DNA from: a virus
UHGV virus genome: UHGV-0096675
Reading direction: 5' to 3' (one strand)
DNA length: 10,445 bases
The translations under genes were made by a program, and so were the position numbers. Shown in pieces: positions 1 through 10,445 of this stretch (position 1 is the stretch's first letter; each line of letters starts with the position of its first letter). The notes under the pieces are model-generated. The model saw only the letters and a program-made list of their open reading frames with translations, did not search any database and was not told the origin of the DNA.

Positions 1-417
1 GCGTAGACGGTCGATATCCTTCAGGATGCGTTTTTTACGCAGGTGTGCTTCGTCGATAATCAGCAGATCGATATTTTCAGGAAAAACACGACGAATAAGC
101 GTGTCGGCGCTGGCAATCTGAATTTTCCGGTCCGGATCGTTGTTCGGGTGATCCGCCCAGATATAACCGATTTCATCCCCCGGTAACCCGTACTCCACGA
201 ACCGATTAGCCGTCTGACCGATCAGGATGGTGTACGGTGCACAGAACAGGACACGCATACCACGGCTGACAAACCCGGCAACGATGAAGGCGGCCAAACC
301 CGTTTTACCGCTACCGGTTGGCGAGTACACCATGAAGGTGTCGTTTGCCTTCCAGTCACGGCGCAACATGTTTAGCGCTCGTTCCTGTGCAAAATTCGGC
401 GTGATCGTCAGCTCCAT
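1..417 (-). CDS. DEAD/DEAH-box (SF2) helicase, N-terminal part; 3' end of gene lies beyond window start
   Basis: Minus-strand ATG at 417..415 opens a frame that runs to position 1 with no stop (absent from the ORF track because it has no stop in the window). Translation MELTITPNFAQERALNMLRRDWKANDTFMVYSPTGSGKTGLAAF...LLIIDEAHLRKK carries Walker A (SPTGSGKT) and a DEAH-type Walker B (IIDEAH). It sits in the replication-gene position of the rightward early operon. Confidence 0.8.
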   Translation of the reverse strand, partial: MELTITPNFAQERALNMLRRDWKANDTFMVYSPTGSGKTGLAAFIVAGFVSRGMRVLFCAPYTILIGQTANRFVEYGLPGDEIGYIWADHPNNDPDRKIQIASADTLIRRVFPENIDLLIIDEAHLRKKRILKDIDRLR

Positions 418-734
418 TGTGCTGCCCCCGTGCTGATGAGATAATCATTTTGTGATGTGGTTTTCATGGATTCCCCCTCACATGGCTGGTGGCCTCCCCA
501 AAGGCTGCCAGCCCCACTTCTGATTCAGCTCCTCTGAAAAATCACTCTTCCAGGAAGAACCCTTTTCGTTTCTCAGCGCCTGAGCGCTTTGTACTACCTT
601 GCTGATACAGGCGTTTTTTTAAATTGCGCCCTTAAGACAGTGATCTACTTAACCAATGGATCTCTCCTGTTGGAAAAGCCCCTATTCCTGCCCCTACACC
701 CAATCCCCCCTTACCCCCCTTTCCCTCTTCCCCA

Positions 735-845: not shown

Positions 846-1142
846 TCAGGAGCGCGATTGCGTTCCAGCCAGGGGAGGTTCGGCGGTATACCCCTGTAAA
901 GCCCTGCCCTGATTTCTCACAAACAGGCGAAGCCTTGTGTTTGCTTCATGCCTTGCCCGGTTCTCCTTGCGGTACGAAACGGGTTCGGCCTCGAACGTCT
1001 CCTGATACACAGCTGCATAACGCTGGATAGCTTTTTGTCGTGCAGTTGGTGTCAGGCTAAGTAACTGCTGCTTAATCCACTCGGCATCCGCTTGGCTAAA
1101 ATCGGAAGGTAAGATGCTGAGTAACTCAGGCGCTGGTTTCAT
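846..1142 (-). CDS. Hypothetical protein in the cII position (possible lysis-lysogeny regulator), function unknown
   Basis: ORF track minus ORF 846..1178; the track start at 1178 is a TTG, and the first ATG is at 1142 (MKPAPELLSILPSDF...). It overlaps the 3' end of cro by 17 nt and lies immediately downstream of cro as cII does in lambda. No motif recognised with certainty. Confidence 0.55.
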   Translation of the reverse strand: MKPAPELLSILPSDFSQADAEWIKQQLLSLTPTARQKAIQRYAAVYQETFEAEPVSYRKENRARHEANTRLRLFVRNQGRALQGYTAEPPLAGTQSRS

Positions 1143-1332
1143 CGCTTCGCCGCTTAGATGGGAATGCTTTGTTTTCAAAAGCTGAAACAGTCCCTTCCTC
1201 AGAAATCACAACAAAGATTTCCCGACCGGCTCTTAATGCTTTGCTTATGGCAATTTGCGTTACTCCGAGCGCTGCGCCAGCTCTTACCTGGCCGTGCTCT
1301 TTCACGTATTCCTTAAGAGTAATCTGGTTCAT
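1126..1332 (-). CDS. cro: Cro repressor (lambda Cro family)
   Basis: 68-aa product MNQITLKEYVKEHGQVRAGAALGVTQIAISKALRAGREIFVVISEEGTVSAFENKAFPSKRR... aligns by eye along its whole length with lambda Cro ([66 protein letters not shown]). RBS GAGGA lies 5 nt upstream of the ATG on the minus strand. It is divergent from cI. Confidence 0.9.
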   Translation of the reverse strand: MNQITLKEYVKEHGQVRAGAALGVTQIAISKALRAGREIFVVISEEGTVSAFENKAFPSKRRSDETSA

Positions 1333-1424: not shown

Positions 1425-2126
1425 ATGGAAAAGAAAAGCAGATTGACCACAGAGCAGCTTCAAGACGCAACGCGTCTAAAAGCTTTGTATGACTCGAAGA
1501 AAAAGGAGTTAGGGATCACGCAGGCTGATATGGCTGACGAACTGGACATATCTCAAGGTGCGGTCGGTCACTACCTGAATGGGCGAAACCCACTGAATCT
1601 TCCAGTTGCAGCAAAGTTTGCGAAACTGCTTCATGAGCCGATTTCGAGTTTCAGCCCCGCTCTTGCTAAAGAAGCTGAGCTGTTATCTCAGGTATCAAAC
1701 GTTACTTATCATGGCCCGGCCAAGCCGCGAGGGACATACCCGCTTATTAGCTGGGTAAGTGCTGGAGCATGGTGTGAGGCTATAGAACCGTACACACTCA
1801 AAGACATTGATGAATGGTACGATTCCGATGCACACATTGAAGGTCAAGGGTTCTGGTTAAAAGTCCAGGGAGACTCAATGACTTCTCCTGTTGGTATGAG
1901 CATACCTGAAGGCATGTACGTTTTAGTCGACACCGGAAAAGAGCCAATCAATGGGAGTTTAGTTGTTGCCAAGCTTACCGACGCTAACGAAGCGACATTT
2001 AAAAAGCTTGTAATCGACGCTGGAAAAACTTACCTCAAGCCATTGAATCCTCAGTATCCTCTCATCCCAATCAACGGCAATTGCAGGATCATCGGTGTCG
2101 TTGTTCAAGCTATGATGTGGCTCTGA
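1425..2126 (+). CDS. cI: CI repressor (lambda CI family; N-terminal HTH plus C-terminal S24 LexA-like autopeptidase domain)
   Basis: ORF track 1407..2126 begins at a TTG; the ATG at 1425 gives MEKKSRLTTEQLQDATRLKALYDSKKKELGITQ..., matching the lambda CI N-terminus ([34 protein letters not shown]). Ala-Gly cleavage site (VSAGAW), catalytic Ser (QGDSMTSP) and Lys (TFKKL) are present, and the C-terminus ...PLNPQYPLIPIN... matches lambda ...PLNPQYPMIPCN.... Confidence 0.92.
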   Translation: MEKKSRLTTEQLQDATRLKALYDSKKKELGITQADMADELDISQGAVGHYLNGRNPLNLPVAAKFAKLLHEPISSFSPALAKEAELLSQVSNVTYHGPAKPRGTYPLISWVSAGAWCEAIEPYTLKDIDEWYDSDAHIEGQGFWLKVQGDSMTSPVGMSIPEGMYVLVDTGKEPINGSLVVAKLTDANEATFKKLVIDAGKTYLKPLNPQYPLIPINGNCRIIGVVVQAMMWL

Positions 2127-2144
2127 TTTAGCTACTAACAGTAC

Positions 2145-2176
2145 AAAGCCTGTCCTCTCGACAGGCTTTTTTTTAT
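2145..2176 (+). terminator. Rho-independent terminator downstream of cI
   Basis: Perfect 8-bp stem AGCCTGTC (2147-2154) / GACAGGCT (2160-2167) with a 5-nt loop, extendable by two A-T pairs, followed by a run of 8 T. Confidence 0.8.
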
Positions 2177-2218
2177 TTCTTTACATTTCAACAAGTAAGC
2201 ATTCAACCAACACAAAAC

Positions 2219-2260
2219 TATACTTTTAGTATTGCAGATACTAAAACATCTAGTATTATT
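2219..2260 (+). promoter_or_regulatory. PL-like early promoter with CI-type operator dyads
   Basis: Perfect dyad TACTTTTAGTA at 2221-2231 is the reverse complement of the OR site at 1354-1364. A second partial site AACATCTAGTA lies at 2245-2255, 24 bp downstream. -35 TTGCAG (2232-2237), 16-nt spacer, -10 TATTAT (2254-2259), so the operators flank and overlap the promoter. Confidence 0.55.
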
Positions 2261-2291
2261 CATTTCATCGGCAAATAACGGAGCTAGTGAG

Positions 2292-2612
2292 ATGACGACT
2301 AACCCTACAATCAAAAAATTATATCAGCTTGTTGATATACCAGATTTTCGCTACAGCAAAGATTGTTCAAGTATTGATTATGGAGATATTGCATCAGATT
2401 GCGATACTAAAACAGTGTCTATCTTTGAAGCTATAAACCATATTAGCTTAAACATTTTTTCCATTGCAGAAGATAAAGAAATCAGCAAAGAAAAGATATT
2501 AAACCTTTCCTGTATCATCGCTGACCTTACTGAAATTGGAATGGCGACCAATAAAATTGGTCAAGCAGCATCATACCTTTCCGGATTAAAGGATGGCAAT
2601 CATGGCTCATGA
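2292..2612 (+). CDS. Hypothetical small mildly acidic protein (106 aa), AT-rich early gene
   Basis: ATG at 2292 (the track start at 2232 is a TTG inside the promoter) with GGAG about 10 nt upstream. Product MTTNPTIKKLYQLVDIPDFRYSKDCSSIDYGD... has no recognised domain. Base composition is visibly much more AT-rich than the flanking prophage genes. Confidence 0.55.
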   Translation: MTTNPTIKKLYQLVDIPDFRYSKDCSSIDYGDIASDCDTKTVSIFEAINHISLNIFSIAEDKEISKEKILNLSCIIADLTEIGMATNKIGQAASYLSGLKDGNHGS

Positions 2613-2796
2613 ATTCTCGTTAGAACAAGCAAAAGAAAAAGCTCATCAGGCAGAAATAATCTGCCTAATGATGGAGGCATACCCAAATAAAATGGATGAT
2701 TCAGAAATCGAGGCAATAGCATCTTTATTAAGCAAGTTAACCGGGGATGTTTGTGCCTGGTTAATTGAAGAGCAAGCCATTAGATCCAACGCTTAG
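2602..2796 (+). CDS. Hypothetical small acidic protein (64 aa), AT-rich early gene
   Basis: ATG at 2602 with AAGGA 8 nt upstream (the track start at 2593 abuts the RBS). It overlaps the upstream gene's stop (2610-2612). Product MAHEFSLEQAKEKAHQAEIICLMMEAYPNKMDDSEIEAIASLL... is Glu/Asp-rich. Confidence 0.5.
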   Translation: MAHEFSLEQAKEKAHQAEIICLMMEAYPNKMDDSEIEAIASLLSKLTGDVCAWLIEEQAIRSNA

Positions 2797-2867
2797 TTTT
2801 TTTAGATTCCTAAATAAATAACAGCTTTATTGCTGAGGGGATTCCATACACTTTTTTAGGAAAAACC

Positions 2868-2966
2868 ATGATAAACATCAACGCCTTTAAGACTGCAAAG
2901 TTATTTTGTTCAGCCGGTTACTGGGATATCGCGAATTTATATCTTAGGAAAGCATACGGGAGATAA
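2868..2966 (+). CDS. Possible small ORF (32 aa), uncertain
   Basis: ATG at 2868 with AGGA 6 nt upstream; MININAFKTAKLFCSAGYWDIANLYLRKAYGR; stop TAA at 2964-2966, 3 nt before the next gene. Below the ORF-track length cutoff; supported only by RBS and context. Confidence 0.2.
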   Translation: MININAFKTAKLFCSAGYWDIANLYLRKAYGR

Positions 2967-2969
2967 ATC

Positions 2970-3194
2970 ATGTCAACACAAGATCGCCAAGACGTGCAAG
3001 GTGTGAATATTAAAGCTGAACAACTTAACTTCCTCATGCAAACAATTCACGCTCACCATAAGGATTTTGACTGCCATCAACTTGACGGCCTTTTAGGTCT
3101 GGCTTATGACCTTGCCGGGTCGGTATATAGCTGGACCGAGGAAGAGGAAAGGATCGTATTAGCAAATGAAGATGCACAACGAAAGGTGTATTAA
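2970..3194 (+). CDS. Hypothetical protein (74 aa)
   Basis: ATG at 2970 with GGGAG upstream. First gene of a tightly packed, translationally coupled chain. No recognised domain. Confidence 0.6.
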   Translation: MSTQDRQDVQGVNIKAEQLNFLMQTIHAHHKDFDCHQLDGLLGLAYDLAGSVYSWTEEEERIVLANEDAQRKVY

Positions 3195-3560
3195 ATGGAT
3201 AATTTAATCACTACGTATCGCCGACGAATTTTAAAGGCTGCGTTATTACGCCACCAGCGTAAAACCGGAAGCACCTGCATCATTATTAATATGCCTAAAG
3301 AGGGGATAAACACTGTCGAATTAACAGAAATACTGCTTGATGGTCTGTTGAGACGATTCGAAAAGTTGGCTCTCAGTGAATACGGGAATATTGACGGCGT
3401 AAAAGCCATCAGAGGAATTTACAGCAACGCCGTAGATGTGAATGGCAGCGGTGAGTTCCTGACAGAAAGCGGAAAGGCATTAATCGACGATCTCATTGCT
3501 GAGCTGGTCGAGTTCGCCAAGAAACAAAAATCAGTCACAGCGGAGACAAGCCATGAGTGA
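3195..3560 (+). CDS. Hypothetical protein (121 aa)
   Basis: ATG at 3195 immediately follows the upstream stop TAA (3192-3194); AAAGG RBS upstream. No recognised domain. Confidence 0.6.
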   Translation: MDNLITTYRRRILKAALLRHQRKTGSTCIIINMPKEGINTVELTEILLDGLLRRFEKLALSEYGNIDGVKAIRGIYSNAVDVNGSGEFLTESGKALIDDLIAELVEFAKKQKSVTAETSHE

Positions 3561-3765
3561 TCAGACACCAATTATCACGCACGAACCAGTAAATATCGTG
3601 CTGACAATCGAGAACGGGAAGGTTATCCACACGCGGCCGGTACATAACGGCGAGGTTACTGCATCGCTGGAGACGTTTTTATGGATGGCTGAACAAGCCG
3701 GTTACACGATCACCCCACCTGCAGGAGAGAAGGACAATGGCCCTGACAGCGATACGAATTCCTGA
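3553..3765 (+). CDS. Hypothetical protein (70 aa)
   Basis: ATG at 3553 (the track start at 3496 is a TTG) overlaps the upstream stop (ATGAGTGA) with GGAG 7 nt upstream. MSDQTPIITHEPVNIVLTIENGKVIHTRPVHNGEV.... Confidence 0.5.
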   Translation: MSDQTPIITHEPVNIVLTIENGKVIHTRPVHNGEVTASLETFLWMAEQAGYTITPPAGEKDNGPDSDTNS

Positions 3766-3955
3766 GTGGGTGCACCTGCAGGCGGTCCATGTCCTCCGCC
3801 AGTTCAGAGCCAAGCGTATTCATCCCTGCCGTATGCACGGCTCCGGAAACCTGAGCCTGAGGGTTAATCGCCGCTGGCGGCTGCTGTCCCGAGACGGTGG
3901 CCAGAACTGGGAAGTAATGAGCCATGAACGATACAGCAAACTGAAGGACAGATAA
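3737..3955 (+). CDS. Hypothetical basic Arg/Trp-rich protein (72 aa); weak resemblance to RelE/HigB-type toxin C-terminal region (speculative)
   Basis: ATG at 3737 preceded by GGAGAGAAGGA; codon third positions are GC-rich as in neighbouring genes. ...IHPCRMHGSGNLSLRVNRRWRLLSRDGGQNWEVMSHERY resembles, by eye only, the conserved C-terminal region of HigB-like toxins. Confidence 0.45.
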   Translation: MALTAIRIPEWVHLQAVHVLRQFRAKRIHPCRMHGSGNLSLRVNRRWRLLSRDGGQNWEVMSHERYSKLKDR

Positions 3956-4050
3956 TGAAAGCATTCTTCCTTTCTCTGCTGTTTGGCCTGTTGCTGGTGT
4001 CCGTCGTGTTCGGCGCGCTGATTGAGTACAAATTTTTGATGAATTTCTGA
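3955..4050 (+). CDS. Small hydrophobic single-pass membrane peptide (31 aa)
   Basis: ATG at 3955 overlaps the upstream stop (TAATG) with AAGGA 7 nt upstream. MKAFFLSLLFGLLLVSVVFGALIEYKFLMNF is about 21 consecutive hydrophobic residues followed by a short charged tail. Its stop overlaps the next start (TGATG). Below the ORF-track length cutoff. Confidence 0.4.
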   Translation: MKAFFLSLLFGLLLVSVVFGALIEYKFLMNF

Positions 4051-4484
4051 TGGTGTTCAAGATGGCAAAAGATTTTTTCGACGTGGCGAGAGTACCCGCG
4101 GATCGCGTTGCAGCGAGGGTAATCAGTAAGGGCATTGATTGGCAGCCAAACAAAAAACGCGAGCAGGGGGATAGCGAAACACCACTCCCTACTCTTGATA
4201 TAAATCAAATGGACCGAACGCAGCGGGAACAGTTTGATTTATTCCAAGGGAGAACTTTCGGGCGAATGACCGTAATTGGGATCGCCGCTATCAAACAAGG
4301 CGACAGTATGCGTTACGTGGTTCGTTGCGCCTGCGGTACATACACATATCGGAGAGCAAAGGCGATTAAAAATCCGAAGAACAACATGGATTGCTGTGAT
4401 TACTGTAGACATCTGCTGCATTTGAAAAGGAATGAAATCCATCGCCGAACAGGTAAAAACCTCAAGTGGGAGGATTTGCCGTGA
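4050..4484 (+). CDS. Hypothetical protein with putative Cys-cluster zinc ribbon (144 aa)
   Basis: ATG at 4050, coupled to the upstream peptide gene. C-terminal cysteine cluster ...RCACGTYTYRRAKAIKNPKNNMDCCDYCRH... (CxC...CCxxC). An alternative start is ATG 4062. Confidence 0.5.
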   Translation: MVFKMAKDFFDVARVPADRVAARVISKGIDWQPNKKREQGDSETPLPTLDINQMDRTQREQFDLFQGRTFGRMTVIGIAAIKQGDSMRYVVRCACGTYTYRRAKAIKNPKNNMDCCDYCRHLLHLKRNEIHRRTGKNLKWEDLP

Positions 4485-4789
4485 CTAAACACCAAGACAT
4501 TATTAATCGCTGGACCCGTTTAGCGGTGGAGGCCAAAGAGCTGGGGCTCGCCACCATTCCCATCGACCCGGAAAAAATGTTGATGGTACTGGGGGAGCTG
4601 CCGTCCAGTTCGGCGGAAAAGTCCGCCGATTGCCAGAATGACTATCAGGCTGCGATCGACATCTTGCGCGACAGAGCTGCTCGCGAACTAGATGGTGGTT
4701 TTCGCGCTCATCACAACGCCCTGATTTATGCCGCTAATGAACTGGAAAATGCCCAGGCTTTCGGGCAGGAGGTCAGCCATGAGTCTTGA
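4481..4789 (+). CDS. Hypothetical protein (102 aa)
   Basis: GTG at 4481 with strong RBS GGGAGGA 7 nt upstream, overlapping the upstream stop (GTGA). The ORF-track start at 4466 is another in-frame GTG without an RBS. Confidence 0.5.
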   Translation: MTKHQDIINRWTRLAVEAKELGLATIPIDPEKMLMVLGELPSSSAEKSADCQNDYQAAIDILRDRAARELDGGFRAHHNALIYAANELENAQAFGQEVSHES

Positions 4790-4988
4790 CTGTGTACCCC
4801 TTTCTACGTACTGCAGGGACGCGGGGGAAACGGTAGAAGCCGTTAACAAACGGATACAAAGGGGGTTATGGAAGGAGGGAGTACATGTATTAAAAGTCGA
4901 TGGCGTTAAAGAACGCTGGATTGACTTAACGGAGGTTTCGAAGTGGGCAAGAAAGAACAAGGATCATTATCTCTCCCAAGAGGAATAA
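4779..4988 (+). CDS. xis: Excisionase (Xis-like, recombination directionality factor)
   Basis: ATG at 4779 with GGAGG 8 nt upstream. The 69-aa product MSLDCVPLSTYCRDAGETVEAVNKRIQRGLWKEGVHVLKVDGVKERWIDLTEVSKWARKNK... is a small basic protein directly upstream of int and overlapping it by 46 nt, as xis does in lambdoid phages. Confidence 0.65.
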   Translation: MSLDCVPLSTYCRDAGETVEAVNKRIQRGLWKEGVHVLKVDGVKERWIDLTEVSKWARKNKDHYLSQEE

Positions 4989-6115
4989 CCATCCGCCAGC
5001 ATAAAACTGGCGACACTCTGGTTATCACTTTCACATACAAAGGGGTTCTGTGCCGGGAGCCCCTCTCCAAAATGGAAGCAAACGCGCGCGGTGTGAAGTA
5101 CGCCGAGCGCCTGCTCGGGGAGATACAAAACCAGATCGTCAGTGGCACCTTTGAATATGCGAAATATTTCCCCAACTCCAAAAAACTGGAGCTTTTCGGG
5201 GGGGTGAAGAAAACCAAAAACATAAAGTCTTACCTGGACGAGTACCTGAAAATCTGCCAGAACCGCAACCTGTCCCCGTCGACTATCAACGGTTATGAAA
5301 AATGCCTGTCGGCGCTGTCAGCCCTGCATAAACTCCACGTGTCAGAACTGACGCCAGCGGTCCTTAAAAACTGGATAGCCAGCCGGAAAACAAAGCTGAA
5401 AACGACCAGGAATAACCTTTCGTTTCTGCGCAGCGCCATCGATGAAGCTGTTACGGATGGCCTGCTGACCATTAACCCGGTAACCCTCGTCAGCGCCAGC
5501 CGGTACCACGTGATCGACAGCAGCCCGAGCGCCGACGATTACGAGGTTGACCCGTTCACGCCAGCGGAAACCCTCGCCATTTACCAGAGCTGCAGGTACC
5601 CGGAATGGGAAAACCTGTTCCGCTTTGCTTTCAATACCGGTCTGCGGAGCTCCGAACTGTGCGCGCTGCGCTGGCCTGATCTCGACACCATCGCGAACAC
5701 AGCCCACGTTCAGGCGGCCAGTGTCGTAGGGGTACTTAAAGGCACCAAGACAAAAGCCGGTACCCGTAAGGTGGAGCTGAACAGTGAGGCGCTGGCGGCC
5801 CTGCAGGCGCAGAAGCAATACACCTTTATGAAAAGTGAGTTCATATTCAGCGACCCGAAAACGGGAGAACCCTGGGCGAACGCCGACGCTATCCGTAAAA
5901 AAGCATGGGTGCCGACCCTGAAAAAAGCTGGCGTGCGCTATCGTAACCCGTACCAGACGCGGCACACATTCGCCACCAAGCATATTAGCCAGGGCGTTAA
6001 CCTCTTCTGGCTTGCCGGACAGATGGGCCACAAAGGACCGGAAATGATATTCCGCAACTACGGTAAATACCTGGCTGAATATGACGGTAAAACCGCGATT
6101 TCAGCCGCGCTGTAG
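4943..6115 (+). CDS. int: Tyrosine integrase (lambda Int family) of the lambdoid prophage
   Basis: GTG start at 4943 with GGAGG 7 nt upstream; 390 aa. Carries the conserved tyrosine-recombinase catalytic region (...GLRSSELCALRW..., ...RHTFATKHISQG..., ...FRNYGKYLAEY...). Its 3' end points at the ssrA-type att core, the lambda-like arrangement. Confidence 0.92.
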   Translation: MGKKEQGSLSLPRGITIRQHKTGDTLVITFTYKGVLCREPLSKMEANARGVKYAERLLGEIQNQIVSGTFEYAKYFPNSKKLELFGGVKKTKNIKSYLDEYLKICQNRNLSPSTINGYEKCLSALSALHKLHVSELTPAVLKNWIASRKTKLKTTRNNLSFLRSAIDEAVTDGLLTINPVTLVSASRYHVIDSSPSADDYEVDPFTPAETLAIYQSCRYPEWENLFRFAFNTGLRSSELCALRWPDLDTIANTAHVQAASVVGVLKGTKTKAGTRKVELNSEALAALQAQKQYTFMKSEFIFSDPKTGEPWANADAIRKKAWVPTLKKAGVRYRNPYQTRHTFATKHISQGVNLFWLAGQMGHKGPEMIFRNYGKYLAEYDGKTAISAAL

Positions 6116-6237
6116 CGGGGGAAATATTTCAAAATGTTGGACAGAATCAGGACGTTAGACAGACCTCAATATGCACGTAAAATGCACTTGAGGTATATAA
6201 CAGCAAGAGAATTGTTTATTTTCAATGAGTTAAATAC

Positions 6238-6274
6238 ATTTCGGACGCGAGTTCAACTCCCGCCAGCTCCACCA
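6238..6274 (+). other. ssrA (tmRNA) 3'-end fragment: acceptor/T-arm copy ending in CCA, serving as an att core and element junction
   Basis: ATTTCGGACGCGAGTTCAACTCCCGCCAGCTCCACCA matches the 3' terminus of enterobacterial tmRNA as I recall it (...AUUUCGGACGCGGGUUCAACUCCCGCCAGCUCCACCA) except for one G-to-A change. No upstream tmRNA body is present: the int stop is only 122 bp upstream. Confidence 0.8.
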
Positions 6275-6308
6275 AATATTGATGTACTGAAGTTCAGTAA
6301 AGTCTACT

Positions 6309-6342
6309 AAGCCCGCACAGCACAAGCTCTGCGGGCTTTTTT
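6309..6342 (+). terminator. Rho-independent terminator downstream of the ssrA fragment
   Basis: 9-bp stem AAGCCCGCA (6309-6317) / TGCGGGCTT (6330-6338) with a 12-nt loop, followed by a T-run through 6342. Confidence 0.7.
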
Positions 6343-6440: not shown

Positions 6441-7670
6441 ATGGCCAAAATCGCTAAGAAGCTCACTGACACTGAAATCAAAAGCACCAAACCTGCCGAA
6501 AAAGAGGTTAACCTTTTTGACGGCGATGGTTTGCTGTTGCGAATCGCTCCCCTGGCGAAGGGAGGGAAGAAAAATTGGTATTTCAGATATGCAGTGCCTG
6601 TGACCAAAAAGCGAACTAAGGTGAGCTTAGGAACCTATCCTCACCTTACACTTGCGAAGGCACGAGCTTTACGTGATGAATACTTGTCGTTGCTTACAAA
6701 TGGTATAGACCCCCAAGTTCATAACAACCAAAAAGCCAATGCACTGAAAGATGCCACGGAACATACATTTCAAGCAGTAGCCAAGAAGTGGCTTGATGAG
6801 AAAGTCAAAACGTCAGGCATCTCCCAAGATCATGCTAACGACATCTGGCGAAGCCTAGAGAGAAATATCTTTTCCACATTGGGTGATACCCCAATTAAGG
6901 AGATTCGCCCTAAAATGCTTAAACAGCATTTAGAACCCATAGAAAAACGAGGTGTCCTTGAAACACTTCGCCGCATCATATCCCGCCTGAATGAAATTTT
7001 CCGCTATGCAGCAACAGAAGAACTCATAGAATTCAACCCGGCAGACAACCTGGGGCAACGGTTCAGCAAGCCAAAAAAACAGAATATGCCAGCATTACCC
7101 CCTTCCGAACTCCCTCGCTTCTTGGTTGCTCTAAACAATGCTTCTATCCGTTTGGAAACAAGGCTACTGATTGAGTGGCAACTTCTCACATGGGTTCGCC
7201 CAGGTGAAGCTGTTCGCACAAGATGGTCAGATATTGATATTGAAACTGGCATGTGGAACATCCCGGCGGAGTTTATGAAAATGAAGAAGCCTCACAAAGT
7301 TCCACTGAGCAAAGAAGCTTTGCGAGTTTTGGATTTAATGAAAGTCATCAGCGGGCATAGAGAGTGGGTGTTCCCCAGTATCAAAGCTCCACTCAATCAC
7401 ATGCATGAACAAACAGCTAATGCGGCCATAATCCGTATGGGTTTCGGAGGTGAGCTTGTAGCTCACGGTATGCGATCCATTGCTAGAACGGCTGCTGAGG
7501 AGTCTGGCAAGTTTAGGACTGATGTCTTAGAAGCCGCCCTTGCCCACTCGAAGAAAGATGAAATAATTGCAGCCTACAATCGTGCAGAGTATCTCACTGA
7601 ACGGGTGGTTCTCATGCAATGGTGGAGTGACTATGTTTCGTCTCAAAAATGCAAAGTTATTGCCGCATAA
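6441..7670 (+). CDS. intA: Tyrosine integrase, P4-like IntA family (CP4-57 IntA-like)
   Basis: ATG at 6441 with GAGGG 8 nt upstream. The product MAKIAKKLTDTEIKSTKPAEKEVNLFDGDGLLLRIA...DIWRSLERNIF...ALETLRRI...MWQLLT...HGMRSIARTA...LEAALAH...AYNRAEYL...MQWWSDYV aligns by eye, from memory, with E. coli CP4-57 IntA. The track start at GTG 6360 adds 27 residues not supported by that alignment. Confidence 0.9.
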   Translation: MAKIAKKLTDTEIKSTKPAEKEVNLFDGDGLLLRIAPLAKGGKKNWYFRYAVPVTKKRTKVSLGTYPHLTLAKARALRDEYLSLLTNGIDPQVHNNQKANALKDATEHTFQAVAKKWLDEKVKTSGISQDHANDIWRSLERNIFSTLGDTPIKEIRPKMLKQHLEPIEKRGVLETLRRIISRLNEIFRYAATEELIEFNPADNLGQRFSKPKKQNMPALPPSELPRFLVALNNASIRLETRLLIEWQLLTWVRPGEAVRTRWSDIDIETGMWNIPAEFMKMKKPHKVPLSKEALRVLDLMKVISGHREWVFPSIKAPLNHMHEQTANAAIIRMGFGGELVAHGMRSIARTAAEESGKFRTDVLEAALAHSKKDEIIAAYNRAEYLTERVVLMQWWSDYVSSQKCKVIAA

Positions 7671-7733
7671 CTCTCCCATGATGGATTAACTATCTTGATT
7701 TAGTTAAAGAATTAATAATCACACCATTAACCT

Positions 7734-7781
7734 ATGTGGACTAAGCATAGCCATTTACAAATGGGGACATTGAGTCCACAT
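7734..7781. repeat. 48-bp dyad-symmetric element (nested inverted repeats around a central AC) upstream of the recombinase operon
   Basis: Outer arms ATGTGGACT (7734-7742) / AGTCCACAT (7773-7781) and inner arms CCATTT (7751-7756) / AAATGG (7759-7764) share one symmetry centre at 7757/7758. The intervening 8-nt segments are not symmetric. No downstream T-run, so it is not a typical terminator. Confidence 0.5.
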
Positions 7782-7952
7782 AACGAAAGCTGTCGGTCAT
7801 ATCAGCTAAATAATTCACATCTCTTCTCGATTATCATACACCTCGAAGATCTACCAAATTCGCTCTAATCAATGATAAAACAGTTGAATTCGGTTAAAAT
7901 TTGATCAATTTTATCCACTACATTGTATTGAATCATCCATGAGGTTTCGTGC

Positions 7953-9509
7953 ATGGCTAGCGAAAATGAAAAAAATCATAGAGTTAGGGTCGCGCAGTAC
8001 TTGAGGATGTCTACCGACCATCAGCAATATTCTTTACATAATCAGTCCGAATATATCAAAGATTATGCTGAAAAGAACAATATGGAAATCGCTTATACCT
8101 ACGATGATGCAGGTAAGAGCGGAGTCAGTATCGTAGGCAGGCATTCTTTGCAGCAGTTACTTAGCGATGTAGAACAAAAGAAAATAGATATACAGGCTGT
8201 ATTATTTTATGATGTGAGCCGTTTTGGTCGTTTTCAAAATAGTGATGAAGCGGCATATTATTCCTTTCTATTTGAGAGAAATGGTGTAGATCTTATATAT
8301 TGTTCCGAACCTATACCCACTAAAGATTTCCCTTTAGAGTCCTCTGTTATACTGAATATAAAAAGATCTAGTGCTGCATATCACAGCAGGAATCTATCTG
8401 AAAAGGTATTTATAGGGCAAGTAAATTTAATAAAGCTTGGTTATCATCAAGGCGGTATGGCTGGTTATGGGCTGAGACGTCTTTTAGTAGACGAAAATGG
8501 CATAGCTAAAGAAATATTGAGTTTCCGCAAAAGAAAGAGTATTCAAACAGATAGGGTAATATTAATTCCGGGACCAAAAAATGAAATAAAAATTGTAAAT
8601 AGAATATATGATCTCTTTATAGATAATAACGTCCCAGAATTCATTATTGCTGAGAGATTAAATGAACAGAACATACCTGCAGAAAATGGAACATTATGGA
8701 CTCGTGCAAAAATACATCAAATTTTGACAAATGAAAAATATATTGGAAACAACATATATAACAAAACCTCATCTAAATTAAAAAGTAGGCTTGTAAAAAA
8801 CCCCAAACATGAATGGGTTAGATGTGACAAGGCATATAAACCTATTATTTCAAAGAAAAAATACAATAAAGCTCAAGAAATAATTCAGCTCCGATCCATT
8901 CATTTGACTAATGAAGATCTATTAGAAAAACTAAAACAAAAATTAGAATCTAATGGAAAACTATCAGGCTTTATCATTGATGAAGATGATACAGGCCCTT
9001 CATCTTCTGTTTATAGAACCCGATTTGGTGGTCTTTTAAGAGCATATACTTTGATTGGTTATAAGCCAGAACATGATTACAGCTATCTCAAAATAAATGA
9101 AGCACTAAGATCATTTTACTCAGAGATAATTGAGGATTTTAAGGGTGAAATTTTAAAAAGTAACTGTCATATAGACGAGTATAAATATGCCCCAATGCTT
9201 TACATCAATGATGAGTTTTTAATTTCCGTCCTTGTTACTAAATGCATACATATGAAATCAGGTAAACTTAGATGGAAAGTCCGGTTTGATAACTCACAGA
9301 AAGCAGACATAACAATTGTTATACGAATGAATTCACAAAATATTTCACCTCTTGATTTTTATATCATACCAAAGATTGAAAACGAATATAATAAAATGTG
9401 CATGACGGAAACAAACAACATTCGATTAGATCTCTATAGATTTGATAATCTTGATAAACTTCTACAAATTATTACTCGCATGAAAGTGAGGGAACTATAT
9501 GCTGCCTGA
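7953..9509 (+). CDS. Large serine recombinase-like protein (resolvase/invertase N-terminal catalytic domain plus recombinase domain; no canonical zinc ribbon seen)
   Basis: ATG at 7953 with GAGG 8 nt upstream; 518 aa. N-terminus RVAQYLRMSTDHQQYSLHNQ fits the serine-recombinase catalytic motif (Y-x-R-x-S-T-x-x-Q), and ...IQAVLFYDVSRFGRF... fits the conserved D-x-S-R-x-x-R motif. GGMAGYGL resembles the start of the recombinase domain. No CxxC pairs are present. Confidence 0.85.
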   Translation: MASENEKNHRVRVAQYLRMSTDHQQYSLHNQSEYIKDYAEKNNMEIAYTYDDAGKSGVSIVGRHSLQQLLSDVEQKKIDIQAVLFYDVSRFGRFQNSDEAAYYSFLFERNGVDLIYCSEPIPTKDFPLESSVILNIKRSSAAYHSRNLSEKVFIGQVNLIKLGYHQGGMAGYGLRRLLVDENGIAKEILSFRKRKSIQTDRVILIPGPKNEIKIVNRIYDLFIDNNVPEFIIAERLNEQNIPAENGTLWTRAKIHQILTNEKYIGNNIYNKTSSKLKSRLVKNPKHEWVRCDKAYKPIISKKKYNKAQEIIQLRSIHLTNEDLLEKLKQKLESNGKLSGFIIDEDDTGPSSSVYRTRFGGLLRAYTLIGYKPEHDYSYLKINEALRSFYSEIIEDFKGEILKSNCHIDEYKYAPMLYINDEFLISVLVTKCIHMKSGKLRWKVRFDNSQKADITIVIRMNSQNISPLDFYIIPKIENEYNKMCMTETNNIRLDLYRFDNLDKLLQIITRMKVRELYAA

Positions 9510-10395
9510 AAAAAATGAATTCCCAATAATTCAAATTGAGATTGCAAAAATAAAATTTCTTAACCCACGAACAAGAAATAAGGTAGTGCATGAAGAAATA
9601 AAGGAAAGCATAAAAAAAAGAGGATTAAGCAAGCCTATAAGCGTAAGAGCTATTGATGAAGGCGATTTCAAATATGCTTTAATTTGTGGTCAAGGGAGAA
9701 TAGAGGCTCTCGTTGCATTAGGTGAAACTATTATTCCAGCAATTATAAGAGATGTATCAGAAGAAGATGCTTACGTTATGAGTTTAGTTGAAAACATTGC
9801 AAGGAGAAGACCACGTTCTAATGAGTTATTACAGGTGATTAAAGACATGAAAATCAGAGGACTTTCAGACTCCGAAATAAGTGAGATTACTGGATATTCA
9901 TCGAACTGGGTGAGCAGTATTAATATGCTACTTGATAAGGGAGAGCATAAACTTCTCTCAGCAGTCGAACGGGGTAATTTGCCTCTGTATCTCGCAGTGC
10001 AATTTGCAAGATGTGAAACTGAGGAAGCACAAGATATTCTTACCGAAGCATATGATAAAAAATTAATAAAAAGTCGGGACATTATAAAGATAAAACACAT
10101 TCTAAATCAAAGAACAGTTGGGAATAAAGGTGCAAAAGCAGCCGGATTTTATTATCACAAACCATCAAAAAGGATGACTTCAGAGGAGTTGATTGAGCTT
10201 TATGAAAATAGTATCGCTGAACATAAATCTGTTTATAACAACTCAAAATTCATAAAAACCAACCTACTAATAGTAAATGAGATTTTTAACATCATAATGA
10301 TGAATAAAAGCTTTCAACATATACTTGAACAAGAGAATCTTTCAGAACTACCATCTCAGATATTAACCCCAGTAAACAAAGAGGTATTAAAATGA
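9499..10395 (+). CDS. ParB/Srx-like N-terminal domain protein with HTH (divergent ParB box: GQGRIEAL instead of GERRxRA)
   Basis: ATG at 9499 overlaps the recombinase stop (ATGCTGCCTGA) with GAGGG 7 nt upstream; 298 aa. ...PISVRAIDEGDFKYALICGQGRIEALVALGETIIPAIIRDVSEEDAYVMSLVENIARR... matches ParB N-terminal domain architecture, followed by an HTH-like segment (LSDSEISEITGYSSNWVSSINMLL). The C-terminal 100 or so residues are uncharacterised. Confidence 0.8.
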   Translation: MLPEKNEFPIIQIEIAKIKFLNPRTRNKVVHEEIKESIKKRGLSKPISVRAIDEGDFKYALICGQGRIEALVALGETIIPAIIRDVSEEDAYVMSLVENIARRRPRSNELLQVIKDMKIRGLSDSEISEITGYSSNWVSSINMLLDKGEHKLLSAVERGNLPLYLAVQFARCETEEAQDILTEAYDKKLIKSRDIIKIKHILNQRTVGNKGAKAAGFYYHKPSKRMTSEELIELYENSIAEHKSVYNNSKFIKTNLLIVNEIFNIIMMNKSFQHILEQENLSELPSQILTPVNKEVLK

Positions 10396-10445
10396 TTCAG
10401 ATACGTTTTGGCGATAATTTTATTTACCTGGAAACTAATAAGTTA
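10392..10445 (+). CDS. Hypothetical protein, 5' part only (third gene of the operon; continues beyond window end)
   Basis: ATG at 10392 overlaps the upstream stop (ATGA); MIQIRFGDNFIYLETNKL... remains open to the window end, with the same AT-rich composition as the upstream genes. Confidence 0.4.
   Translation, partial: MIQIRFGDNFIYLETNKL

Follow-up and report, generated by a model that had tools for sequence, protein, structure and literature searches.

The leftward early operon of phage lambda starts at a promoter, PL, that lies downstream of the repressor gene cI and in the orientation of cI. Its operators (OL) overlap the promoter and share their sequence with those of the right operator (OR), and the promoter is followed by N, ral, kil, cIII, and a string of further small, mostly non-essential early genes that ends in xis and int. 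Here we describe a locus of the same layout in the virus genome UHGV-0096675, of which we analyzed one stretch of 10,445 nucleotides (the window), found on the metagenome contig ENA ERZ826963 NODE_2493. The locus is a cassette at positions 2219 to 2966 that comprises two overlapping genes, which we call orfA and orfB, and a 32-codon gene, orf32. In contrast to lambda, the window has no N gene, no nut site, no terminators inside the operon, and no rex-type genes between cI and PL, and its small genes are unrelated to ral, kil, cIII, and ea10.

Two described phages are close to this arrangement. Fels-1 and the Klebsiella phage KPP5665-2 carry orthologous orfA/orfB pairs directly after the repressor gene and the same downstream genes but differ in repressor, operators, and integrase. 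The locus also resembles the variable hotspots for accessory genes in temperate phages and satellites, such as those of P2/P4 (PMC9122126), in its fixed position, in its conserved flanks (formed here by the PL leader to the left and by orf32 to the right), and in receiving unrelated alternative cassettes, here even behind the same cI. Unlike in those hotspots, the cargo is tiny (60 to 170 amino acids), lies behind a repressor-controlled lytic promoter, and does not consist of lysogen-expressed multigene defense systems; PADLOC gave no match. Finally, there is a likeness to the Icd-like loci of P1, P4-like elements, and elements resembling phage-inducible chromosomal islands (PICI-like; NF033153), because genes of the orfB family lie directly downstream of Icd-like genes, or are fused to them, in three elements. 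However, orfA and orfB do not themselves match the Icd-like model in an NCBIfam scan, and the link is one of adjacency only.

We propose that the segment is the part of the leftward early (PL) operon nearest to the promoter in a lambdoid prophage of the Fels-1 type, that its first genes occupy an exchangeable slot, and that orfA and orfB most likely encode immediate-early, non-essential proteins that bind a protein of the host or of a rival element. We hold this explanation as a whole with moderate confidence. In its regulatory layout the locus is an ordinary lambdoid one, and its gene families have been catalogued before, under "unknown function." What is new is the delimitation of a slot immediately after PL in which cassettes are exchanged, in a widespread group of prophages of Enterobacterales that includes the genetically tractable Fels-1 of Salmonella LT2; a conserved, unannotated 32-codon gene; and a hairpin family, that of orfB and its paralog orfD, which is common to satellites and adjoins Icd-like genes.

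A predicted CI-controlled leftward promoter

The + strand of the window carries the immunity region and left arm of the prophage and corresponds to lambda's leftward direction; the cassette therefore sits where lambda has PL and N. Behind cI lies an intrinsic terminator (Table 1) with a fold of -14.9 kcal/mol (z = -6.1) that none of 200 shuffled sequences matched, and a different but canonical terminator stands at the same place after cI in every relative compared. Exact copies of the dyad TACT-N3-AGTA number four in the window versus 0.07 expected, and 0 of 200 shuffles reach four. One copy lies in OR (1354), one just past the cI stop codon (2133), one in the PL region (2221), and one in an unrelated island (10265). 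The 12-mer TACTAAAAGTAT is common to OR (1354-1365) and the PL region (2220-2231, opposite strand). Together with weaker copies at 1378-1388, 1401-1413, and 2244-2256, this gives OR three sites spaced 22 to 24 bp and PL two sites spaced 24 bp from center to center, in agreement with the spacing in OR. The site at 2244-2256 can alternatively be read as ATACTA-N7-TAGTAT at 2238-2256, and the dyad at 2133-2143 is possibly a distal third operator.

Our comparison of regulatory regions covered Fels-1, KPP5665-2, the Yersinia phage YP3, and prophages of Citrobacter, Kosakonia, Pseudescherichia, Erwinia, and Superficieibacter. These relatives have at least six unrelated S24 repressors, each with its own terminator and its own operator word in OR and PL (for example, AATACATAACGTA, TACTATAGTATTAA, AATCGCTTTAGCGATTG, and TAACACATATT). 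In each relative compared, a TTGACx-17-TATxxT promoter stands a constant number of positions away from a leader that is semi-conserved, and alignment on the conserved leader places the TTGCAG-16-TATTAT of the window exactly there. L002, an Escherichia coli prophage that shares the cI of the window, does not differ from it in promoter, operators, or leader through the Shine-Dalgarno sequence. The window has a promoter downstream of cI and in the same orientation, overlapped by OR-like operators, and because this layout recurs with immunity-specific operator words in every relative examined, CI-repressed, immediate-early expression of the cassette is the best reading and is well supported by sequence logic. 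An earlier interpretation of the window, made from its letters alone (the sequence-only reading), had described a cassette separated from cI transcription by a strong terminator, a promoter of its own overlapped by OR-type dyads, and CI-repressed immediate-early genes, and our comparison supports this description.

The same reading had excluded both products as N antiterminators, with which we agree. Neither protein has an Arg-rich N terminus (one Arg and three Lys in residues 1 to 25 of orfA; two Lys and no Arg in residues 1 to 20 of orfB). The PL leader, only ~25 to 30 nucleotides long, contains no nut site (boxA/boxB), and the region has no Rfam match. Nor does family membership point to an antiterminator, as orfA has no Pfam family and the PHROG matches are only to families of unknown function. 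An N-type antiterminator appears to be neither present nor needed, the latter because our scan found no terminator-like site on the + strand within 2292-5000. Fels-1-type phages have a helicase/primase replication module and a Q antiterminator and lack N.

Of 76 relatives, 23 keep the PL leader (tcatttCATCGGCAAAcAACGGAGCc..ATG) with at most 4 mismatches in 20 positions. The leader stands behind operators of several types and in front of several different first genes; even in L002, where it is identical through the Shine-Dalgarno sequence, it precedes a gene other than orfA. The leader may serve as a recombination junction at which cassettes are exchanged, or it may function as a 5' untranslated region. 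A hairpin in this region that sequesters the start codon was considered and rejected: the leader fold (-7.7 kcal/mol, z = -0.43) is not better than that of shuffled sequences, and the 5' arm probably lies upstream of the transcription start. We also rejected an antisense unit in orfA/orfB. The - strand has a promoter-like TTGCCA-18-TATGAT (10/12; 2599-2570) and a terminator-like hairpin (2671-2643), both of which are probably chance features of AT-rich DNA because neither is conserved in the relatives.

An exchangeable slot between the leader and orf32

The slot was surveyed in 80 of 447 IMG/VR relatives, anchored on orfE. The stretch from cI to orf32 measures 550 to 1225 nucleotides in nearly all 80 loci, and its content varies: about 23 loci have orfA plus orfB, about 31 have an S24-only "CI C-terminal domain" gene alongside other small proteins, and about 21 have helix-turn-helix (HTH) or other proteins. 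The same cI type occurs with different cargo. The orfA-orfB pair is the commonest and most widely spread occupant, present in phages of Salmonella, Klebsiella, Erwinia, and Yersinia. Most relatives keep the order cI - orfA - orfB - orf32 - (orfD) - orfE - orfF - ParE-like gene, with 50 to 57% protein identity in distant ones. We take the stretch from the PL leader to orf32 to be an AT-rich cassette-exchange slot in which orfA-orfB is one of several alternative cargoes.

Two elements illustrate the exchange. The prophage L002 is nearly identical and shares cI, cro, helicase, orfE, and int with the window. Its flanks are 91 to 99% identical to those of the window, and it carries a different cassette, without orfA and orfB. 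Phage YP3, isolated on Yersinia ruckeri Yr3, has orfA and lacks orfB and orf32. We regard the cassette as accessory because the cargo of the slot varies, L002 lacks both genes, and YP3 lacks orfB.

The GC content is 0.353 over the cassette span versus 0.499 in the rest of the prophage part, and the AT-rich stretch extends into orfD and orfE, to ~3400. The sequence-only reading had noticed this difference and had taken the segment for a horizontally acquired accessory module. Its accessory nature is supported by L002, YP3, and the varied cargo. The use of AT-richness as a mark of recent import is not, because the GC content of the slot is 0.34 to 0.40 in 12 of 12 relatives checked, whatever the cargo. 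AT-richness is a property of the slot in this phage lineage.

One alternative cargo, found at 5352-5744 of L002 and in ~30 IMG/VR loci, is a stand-alone S24 peptidase domain of 130 amino acids without an HTH (phrog_6201, "CI-like repressor"). It resembles the C-terminal domain of an immunity type other than that of the resident cI and is a possible dominant-negative protein or antirepressor.

The genes of the cassette

The sequence-only reading had proposed two genes and a possible 32-codon reading frame, and all three appear to be real genes from their conservation and from the purifying selection acting on them. The median ratio of nonsynonymous to synonymous polymorphism (pN/pS; pairwise Nei-Gojobori) is 0.36 for orfA, 0.38 for orfB, and 0.37 for orf32, at saturated synonymous sites. 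Homologs of orfA fall into 40 clusters and those of orfB into 36, all from Enterobacterales. A GGAG precedes the orfA start by 8 nucleotides. For orfB, usage in the relatives indicates the ATG at 2602 rather than that at 2593, behind a conserved AAGGA; the gene overlaps the end of orfA by 11 nucleotides, and the AAGGA and the ATG overlapping the orfA stop codon are kept in all relatives, which suggests that the two genes are translationally coupled.

Both genes and orfD, which follows orf32, have significant full-length profile matches to PHROG families (phrog_2583, phrog_1478, and phrog_8959, respectively), all labelled "unknown function." orfB and orfD cross-match each other's family, and hhalign relates them with a probability of 80 to 93% (E = 1e-5 to 3e-7). 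A common origin of orfA and orfB was rejected (hhalign probability of 0.3%), as was homology of either to the alternative cargo of the slot, for which hmmsearch found nothing below an E-value of 0.1; hhalign gave weak links only, of orfD to the family C16 at 42 to 63%.

The orthologous pairs are STM0898.7n/STM0898.6n in Fels-1 and gp36/gp35 in KPP5665-2, with 53 to 56% identity for orfA and 48 to 50% for orfB. A literature search for STM0898, ECs1579, and anti-defense genes downstream of a repressor gave no functional data on these genes. The public annotations of the two orfA orthologs look wrong. KPP5665-2 gp36 (6992-7306 of locus L005) is labelled "recombination-related exonuclease," for which searches of Pfam, NCBIfam, and the PDB with the orfA family gave no support, and the annotated start of STM0898.7n (6767-7318 of locus L004) falls inside the repressor gene.

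The third gene, orf32, was absent from every annotation and gene call examined, and by our comparison it is the most conserved element of the region. We identified it in 12 loci and found it in 79 of 80 IMG/VR relatives, with the consensus MINKxAFKTAxLFxSxGYWxIAxLYLxKAYGR, a length of 32 to 36 amino acids, and a stop codon 0 to 4 nucleotides from the next start. Its product is basic (isoelectric point [pI] of 9.7). A homology to lambda Kil, suspected by eye, was rejected at an hhalign probability of 0.2%, and a Pfam scan listed no lambda CIII or Kil family. A relationship to ANR-family or TPR-like proteins was considered and dropped, as NCBIfam and Pfam gave nothing.

Predicted folds of the products and relatives in satellites

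AlphaFold predicts for orfA an extended N-terminal segment and a hairpin of helices 30-59 and 66-103 (predicted local distance difference test score [pLDDT] of 86) and for orfB a simple hairpin of helices 7-26 and 33-63 (pLDDT of 93). These confident models speak against the earlier description of the products as low-complexity proteins. They had also been called mildly to strongly acidic; orfA and orfB are mildly so (pI of 4.80 and net charge of -5; pI of 4.51 and net charge of -7), strong acidity was not found, and the orf32 product is basic. The suggested comparison with anti-restriction and anti-defense proteins returned generic hairpins only, without a significant Foldseek match. The structural neighbors are LapA4, prefoldin, EsxA, ING4, PadR, and the DHp domains of histidine kinases, all of them only dimerization or binding hairpins. 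Searches of PDB sequence profiles, Pfam, NCBIfam, and PADLOC gave nothing for orfA or orfB, and no match by sequence or fold was found to N, Ocr, ArdA, Ral, Kil, CIII, or anti-CRISPR proteins, including the solved structures of Ocr, ArdA, Ral, and anti-CRISPR members. Nor do the charges resemble the very acidic surfaces of the DNA mimics Ocr and ArdA.

The pair does not behave as a type II toxin-antitoxin system, for which strict co-occurrence and a family match would be expected. YP3 and L010 have orfA and lack orfB; L059, L096, L095, and L097 have orfB and lack orfA; and neither protein matches a toxin or antitoxin family in Pfam, NCBIfam, or PADLOC. The overlap of the two genes is the one feature in keeping with such a system.

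The superfamily of orfB and orfD is small, with 90 clusters among 1.84 billion representatives, nearly all of them stand-alone proteins of 60 to 80 amino acids. An orfB-like gene directly follows Icd-like genes (NF033153) in the P4/PICI-like element L095, which has the order int - alpA - icd - icd - orfB-like - ... - primase - ssb - capsid, and an Icd-like gene in a remnant on plasmid pKP187 (L097). A Providencia protein has an orfB-like part fused to an Icd-like domain; in P0158 the Icd-like model matches only residues 20 to 62, upstream of the orfB-like part. Both L095 and L096, a Fels-1-like prophage on a Salmonella plasmid, contain several such small genes in tandem, which by eye look like further hairpins in their sequence. 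A plasmid leading-region context was rejected, as the plasmid hits are this prophage, the satellite-like element L095, and the remnant of one in L097.

Possible roles of orfA and orfB

We envisage the following course of events. In the lysogen, the cI transcript would stop at its own terminator, and a sigma-70 promoter ~60 bp beyond it would be kept shut by CI bound to the dyads that cover its -35 and -10 elements. Upon induction or infection, PL would fire at once, and transcription would run through to xis and int without a further terminator. The first products would be the coupled orfA and orfB, followed by the 32-residue micro-protein and then by orfD. As small, stable helical hairpins that in the models have no catalytic or DNA-binding features, orfA and orfB would most likely act stoichiometrically: they would bind a host protein, or one from a competing element, and either block it or redirect it. 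Such an action could serve host takeover or counter-defense, and the two proteins would not be essential for the phage life cycle.

Some points weigh against this interpretation. CI repression and early timing are inferred from sequence alone, and a consensus promoter scan did not call the PL of the window, the -35 of which matches at only 3 of 6 positions, below the threshold. Fold searches tell little about helical hairpins, which are too generic a fold, and "binder of a host or rival protein" names a class rather than a mechanism. In addition, some alternative cargoes are regulator-like (the S24-only protein resembling the CI C-terminal domain and the HTH proteins), a hint that the slot could serve the lysis-lysogeny switch.

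This last point leads to a different view of orfA and orfB as internal regulators of the phage. They could act as an antirepressor or a commitment factor, or they could protect the cII-position protein in a CIII-like manner. If a first gene under CI repression antagonized CI, a commitment switch would result, and the "CI-like repressor" domain of phrog_6201 and the HTH proteins are among the alternatives for the slot. However, the same pair stands behind at least six unrelated immunity types, some with repressors that have no tblastn similarity to the cI of the window; L002 has the same cI and cro and does without the pair; and relatives of orfB occur in satellites that lack this switch. Moreover, Pfam lists no lambda CIII family for orfB, and hhalign finds no similarity of the orf32 family to lambda Kil. 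We consider such a role rather improbable. Because the family occurs in elements without this switch and many unrelated repressors precede the pair, the target is more likely a protein of the host or of a rival element than CI or Cro, and an action of orfA and orfB on the switch of the phage itself is improbable. The sequence-only reading had favored anti-restriction or anti-defense factors, that is, DNA mimics like Ocr and ArdA or other known inhibitors such as Ral and anti-CRISPRs. The first genes transcribed from PL are a logical place for counter-defense, the slot is variable and exchangeable like anti-defense loci, and both proteins are acidic; yet the acidity is mild (pI of 4.8 and 4.5), and the PDB profile, Pfam, NCBIfam, and PADLOC searches came back empty. 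The structure tests lend the DNA-mimic idea no support, membership in these known classes is improbable, and an anti-defense role is a guess that our analysis does not indicate.

Inhibition of growth or cell division, with orfA as a Kil- or Icd-like protein and orfB as its coupled modulator, seems to us improbable as well. The idea draws on the orfB-family genes right after Icd-like genes in L095 and L097 and on the fusion in the Providencia protein, on the position of orfA in Fels-1-type phages, which is that of Icd in elements of the L095/L097 type, and on the overlap of orfA and orfB. The argument is one of adjacency, though: orfA is not similar to Icd, the 32-residue family is not similar to lambda Kil, and strict pairing of a toxin with its antidote is unlikely given that each gene occurs alone. 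We think it very unlikely that the cassette is a lysogen-expressed exclusion or defense module, analogous to rexAB, sieB, or bstA beside cI. The neighborhood of cI is a known site of such genes in other lambdoid phages, and a weak promoter-like TCGACA-18-TACATT lies upstream of the operators, at 2158-2187. Against such a module stand the strong terminator between cI and the cassette, the conserved promoter covered by operators, the lack of a PADLOC match, and the nature of the proteins, which are tiny hairpins without an effector domain.

Returning to orfA and orfB as binders of host or rival proteins, one may ask what the slot as a whole could be. A doubtful but more far-reaching hypothesis is that the PL-proximal slot of Fels-1-type phages is a hotspot for counter-defense or host takeover; that the hairpin genes shared with satellites (orfB, orfD, C16, and related families, ~90 clusters at 50% identity) form an undescribed class of immediate-early inhibitors; that their targets are conserved Enterobacterales proteins or immune systems; and that orf32 is a core early factor. 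The slot would provide a ready list of further candidates if any of these small proteins indeed blocks an immune system or a pathway of the host. If not, the genes would be one more set of dispensable early genes.

Features of the region

Table 1. Features of the immunity region and left arm of the prophage in the window
Feature	Position	Strand	Description
Helicase fragment	1-418	-	Prophage
cII-position gene	846-1178	-	Prophage
cro, lambda type	1126-1332	-	PF09048
cI	1425-2126	+	S24/HTH
Dyad TACTAACAGTA	2133-2143		Between cI stop codon and terminator; exact TACT-N3-AGTA; identical in L002
Intrinsic terminator of cI transcript	2145-2177	+	10-pair stem (2145-2169), then T-run
Putative operator ATACTTTTAGTAT	2220-2232		Perfect 13-bp palindrome; abuts -35; 12-mer in common with OR 1354-1365
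PL-type promoter (predicted)	2232-2259	+	-35 TTGCAG (2232-2237), 16-nucleotide spacer, -10 TATTAT (2254-2259)
Second, weaker operator half-match AAACATCTAGTAT	2244-2256		In spacer and -10; 3 mismatches to operator word
Leader	2262-2291	+	Shine-Dalgarno GGAG (2280-2283); semi-conserved junction CATCGGCAAAyAACGGAGC
orfA	2292-2612	+	106 amino acids; phrog_2583, E = 1e-41; extended N-terminal segment and long helical hairpin
orfB	2602-2796	+	64 amino acids; phrog_1478, E = 7e-30; helical hairpin
orf32	2868-2966	+	32-amino-acid basic micro-protein; right-hand anchor of variable slot
orfD	2970-3194	+	74 amino acids, orfB paralog; phrog_8959, E = 9e-29; beyond the cassette, in the same AT-rich early block
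Integrase (after xis)	4943-6115	+	End of run of small + strand genes
ssrA 3' end	~6243-6274		Serves as right attachment site (attR)

The listed reading frame of cI begins at TTG 1407; the ATG at 1425 is mostly used by the relatives and gene callers. A -10-like TATTAA lies at 1410-1415. Because this is only ~7 to 10 nucleotides upstream of the ATG, the cI mRNA from the maintenance promoter may be leaderless. The lambda cI mRNA from its maintenance promoter is leaderless.

Further along the predicted PL operon, an acidic open reading frame of 70 amino acids (3553-3765; phrog_340) overlaps a ParE-like toxin gene (3737-3955; PF24732, E = 7e-20). The two are probably a toxin-antitoxin pair within the operon, and they are conserved in most relatives. 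Directly after the ParE-like gene, at 3955-4050, comes an open reading frame for a strongly hydrophobic peptide of 31 amino acids (MKAFFLSLLFGLLLVSVVFGALIEYKFLMNF), which is called by a metagenome gene caller.

The attachment site of the prophage is the 3' end of ssrA, within 6073-6342 (a partial match to transfer-messenger RNA; by eye, sequence GGACGCGAGTTCAACTCCCGCCAGCTCCACCA); after it, a short stretch matches the 5' part of IsrM. A second integrase, of the P4 type, lies at 6441-7670. Beyond it lies an AT-rich island (GC content of ~0.3), where two ParB_N/RepB-like genes and a gene for a large serine recombinase (7953-9509) are found. The stretch from 6441 to 10445 is a tandem integration at ssrA.

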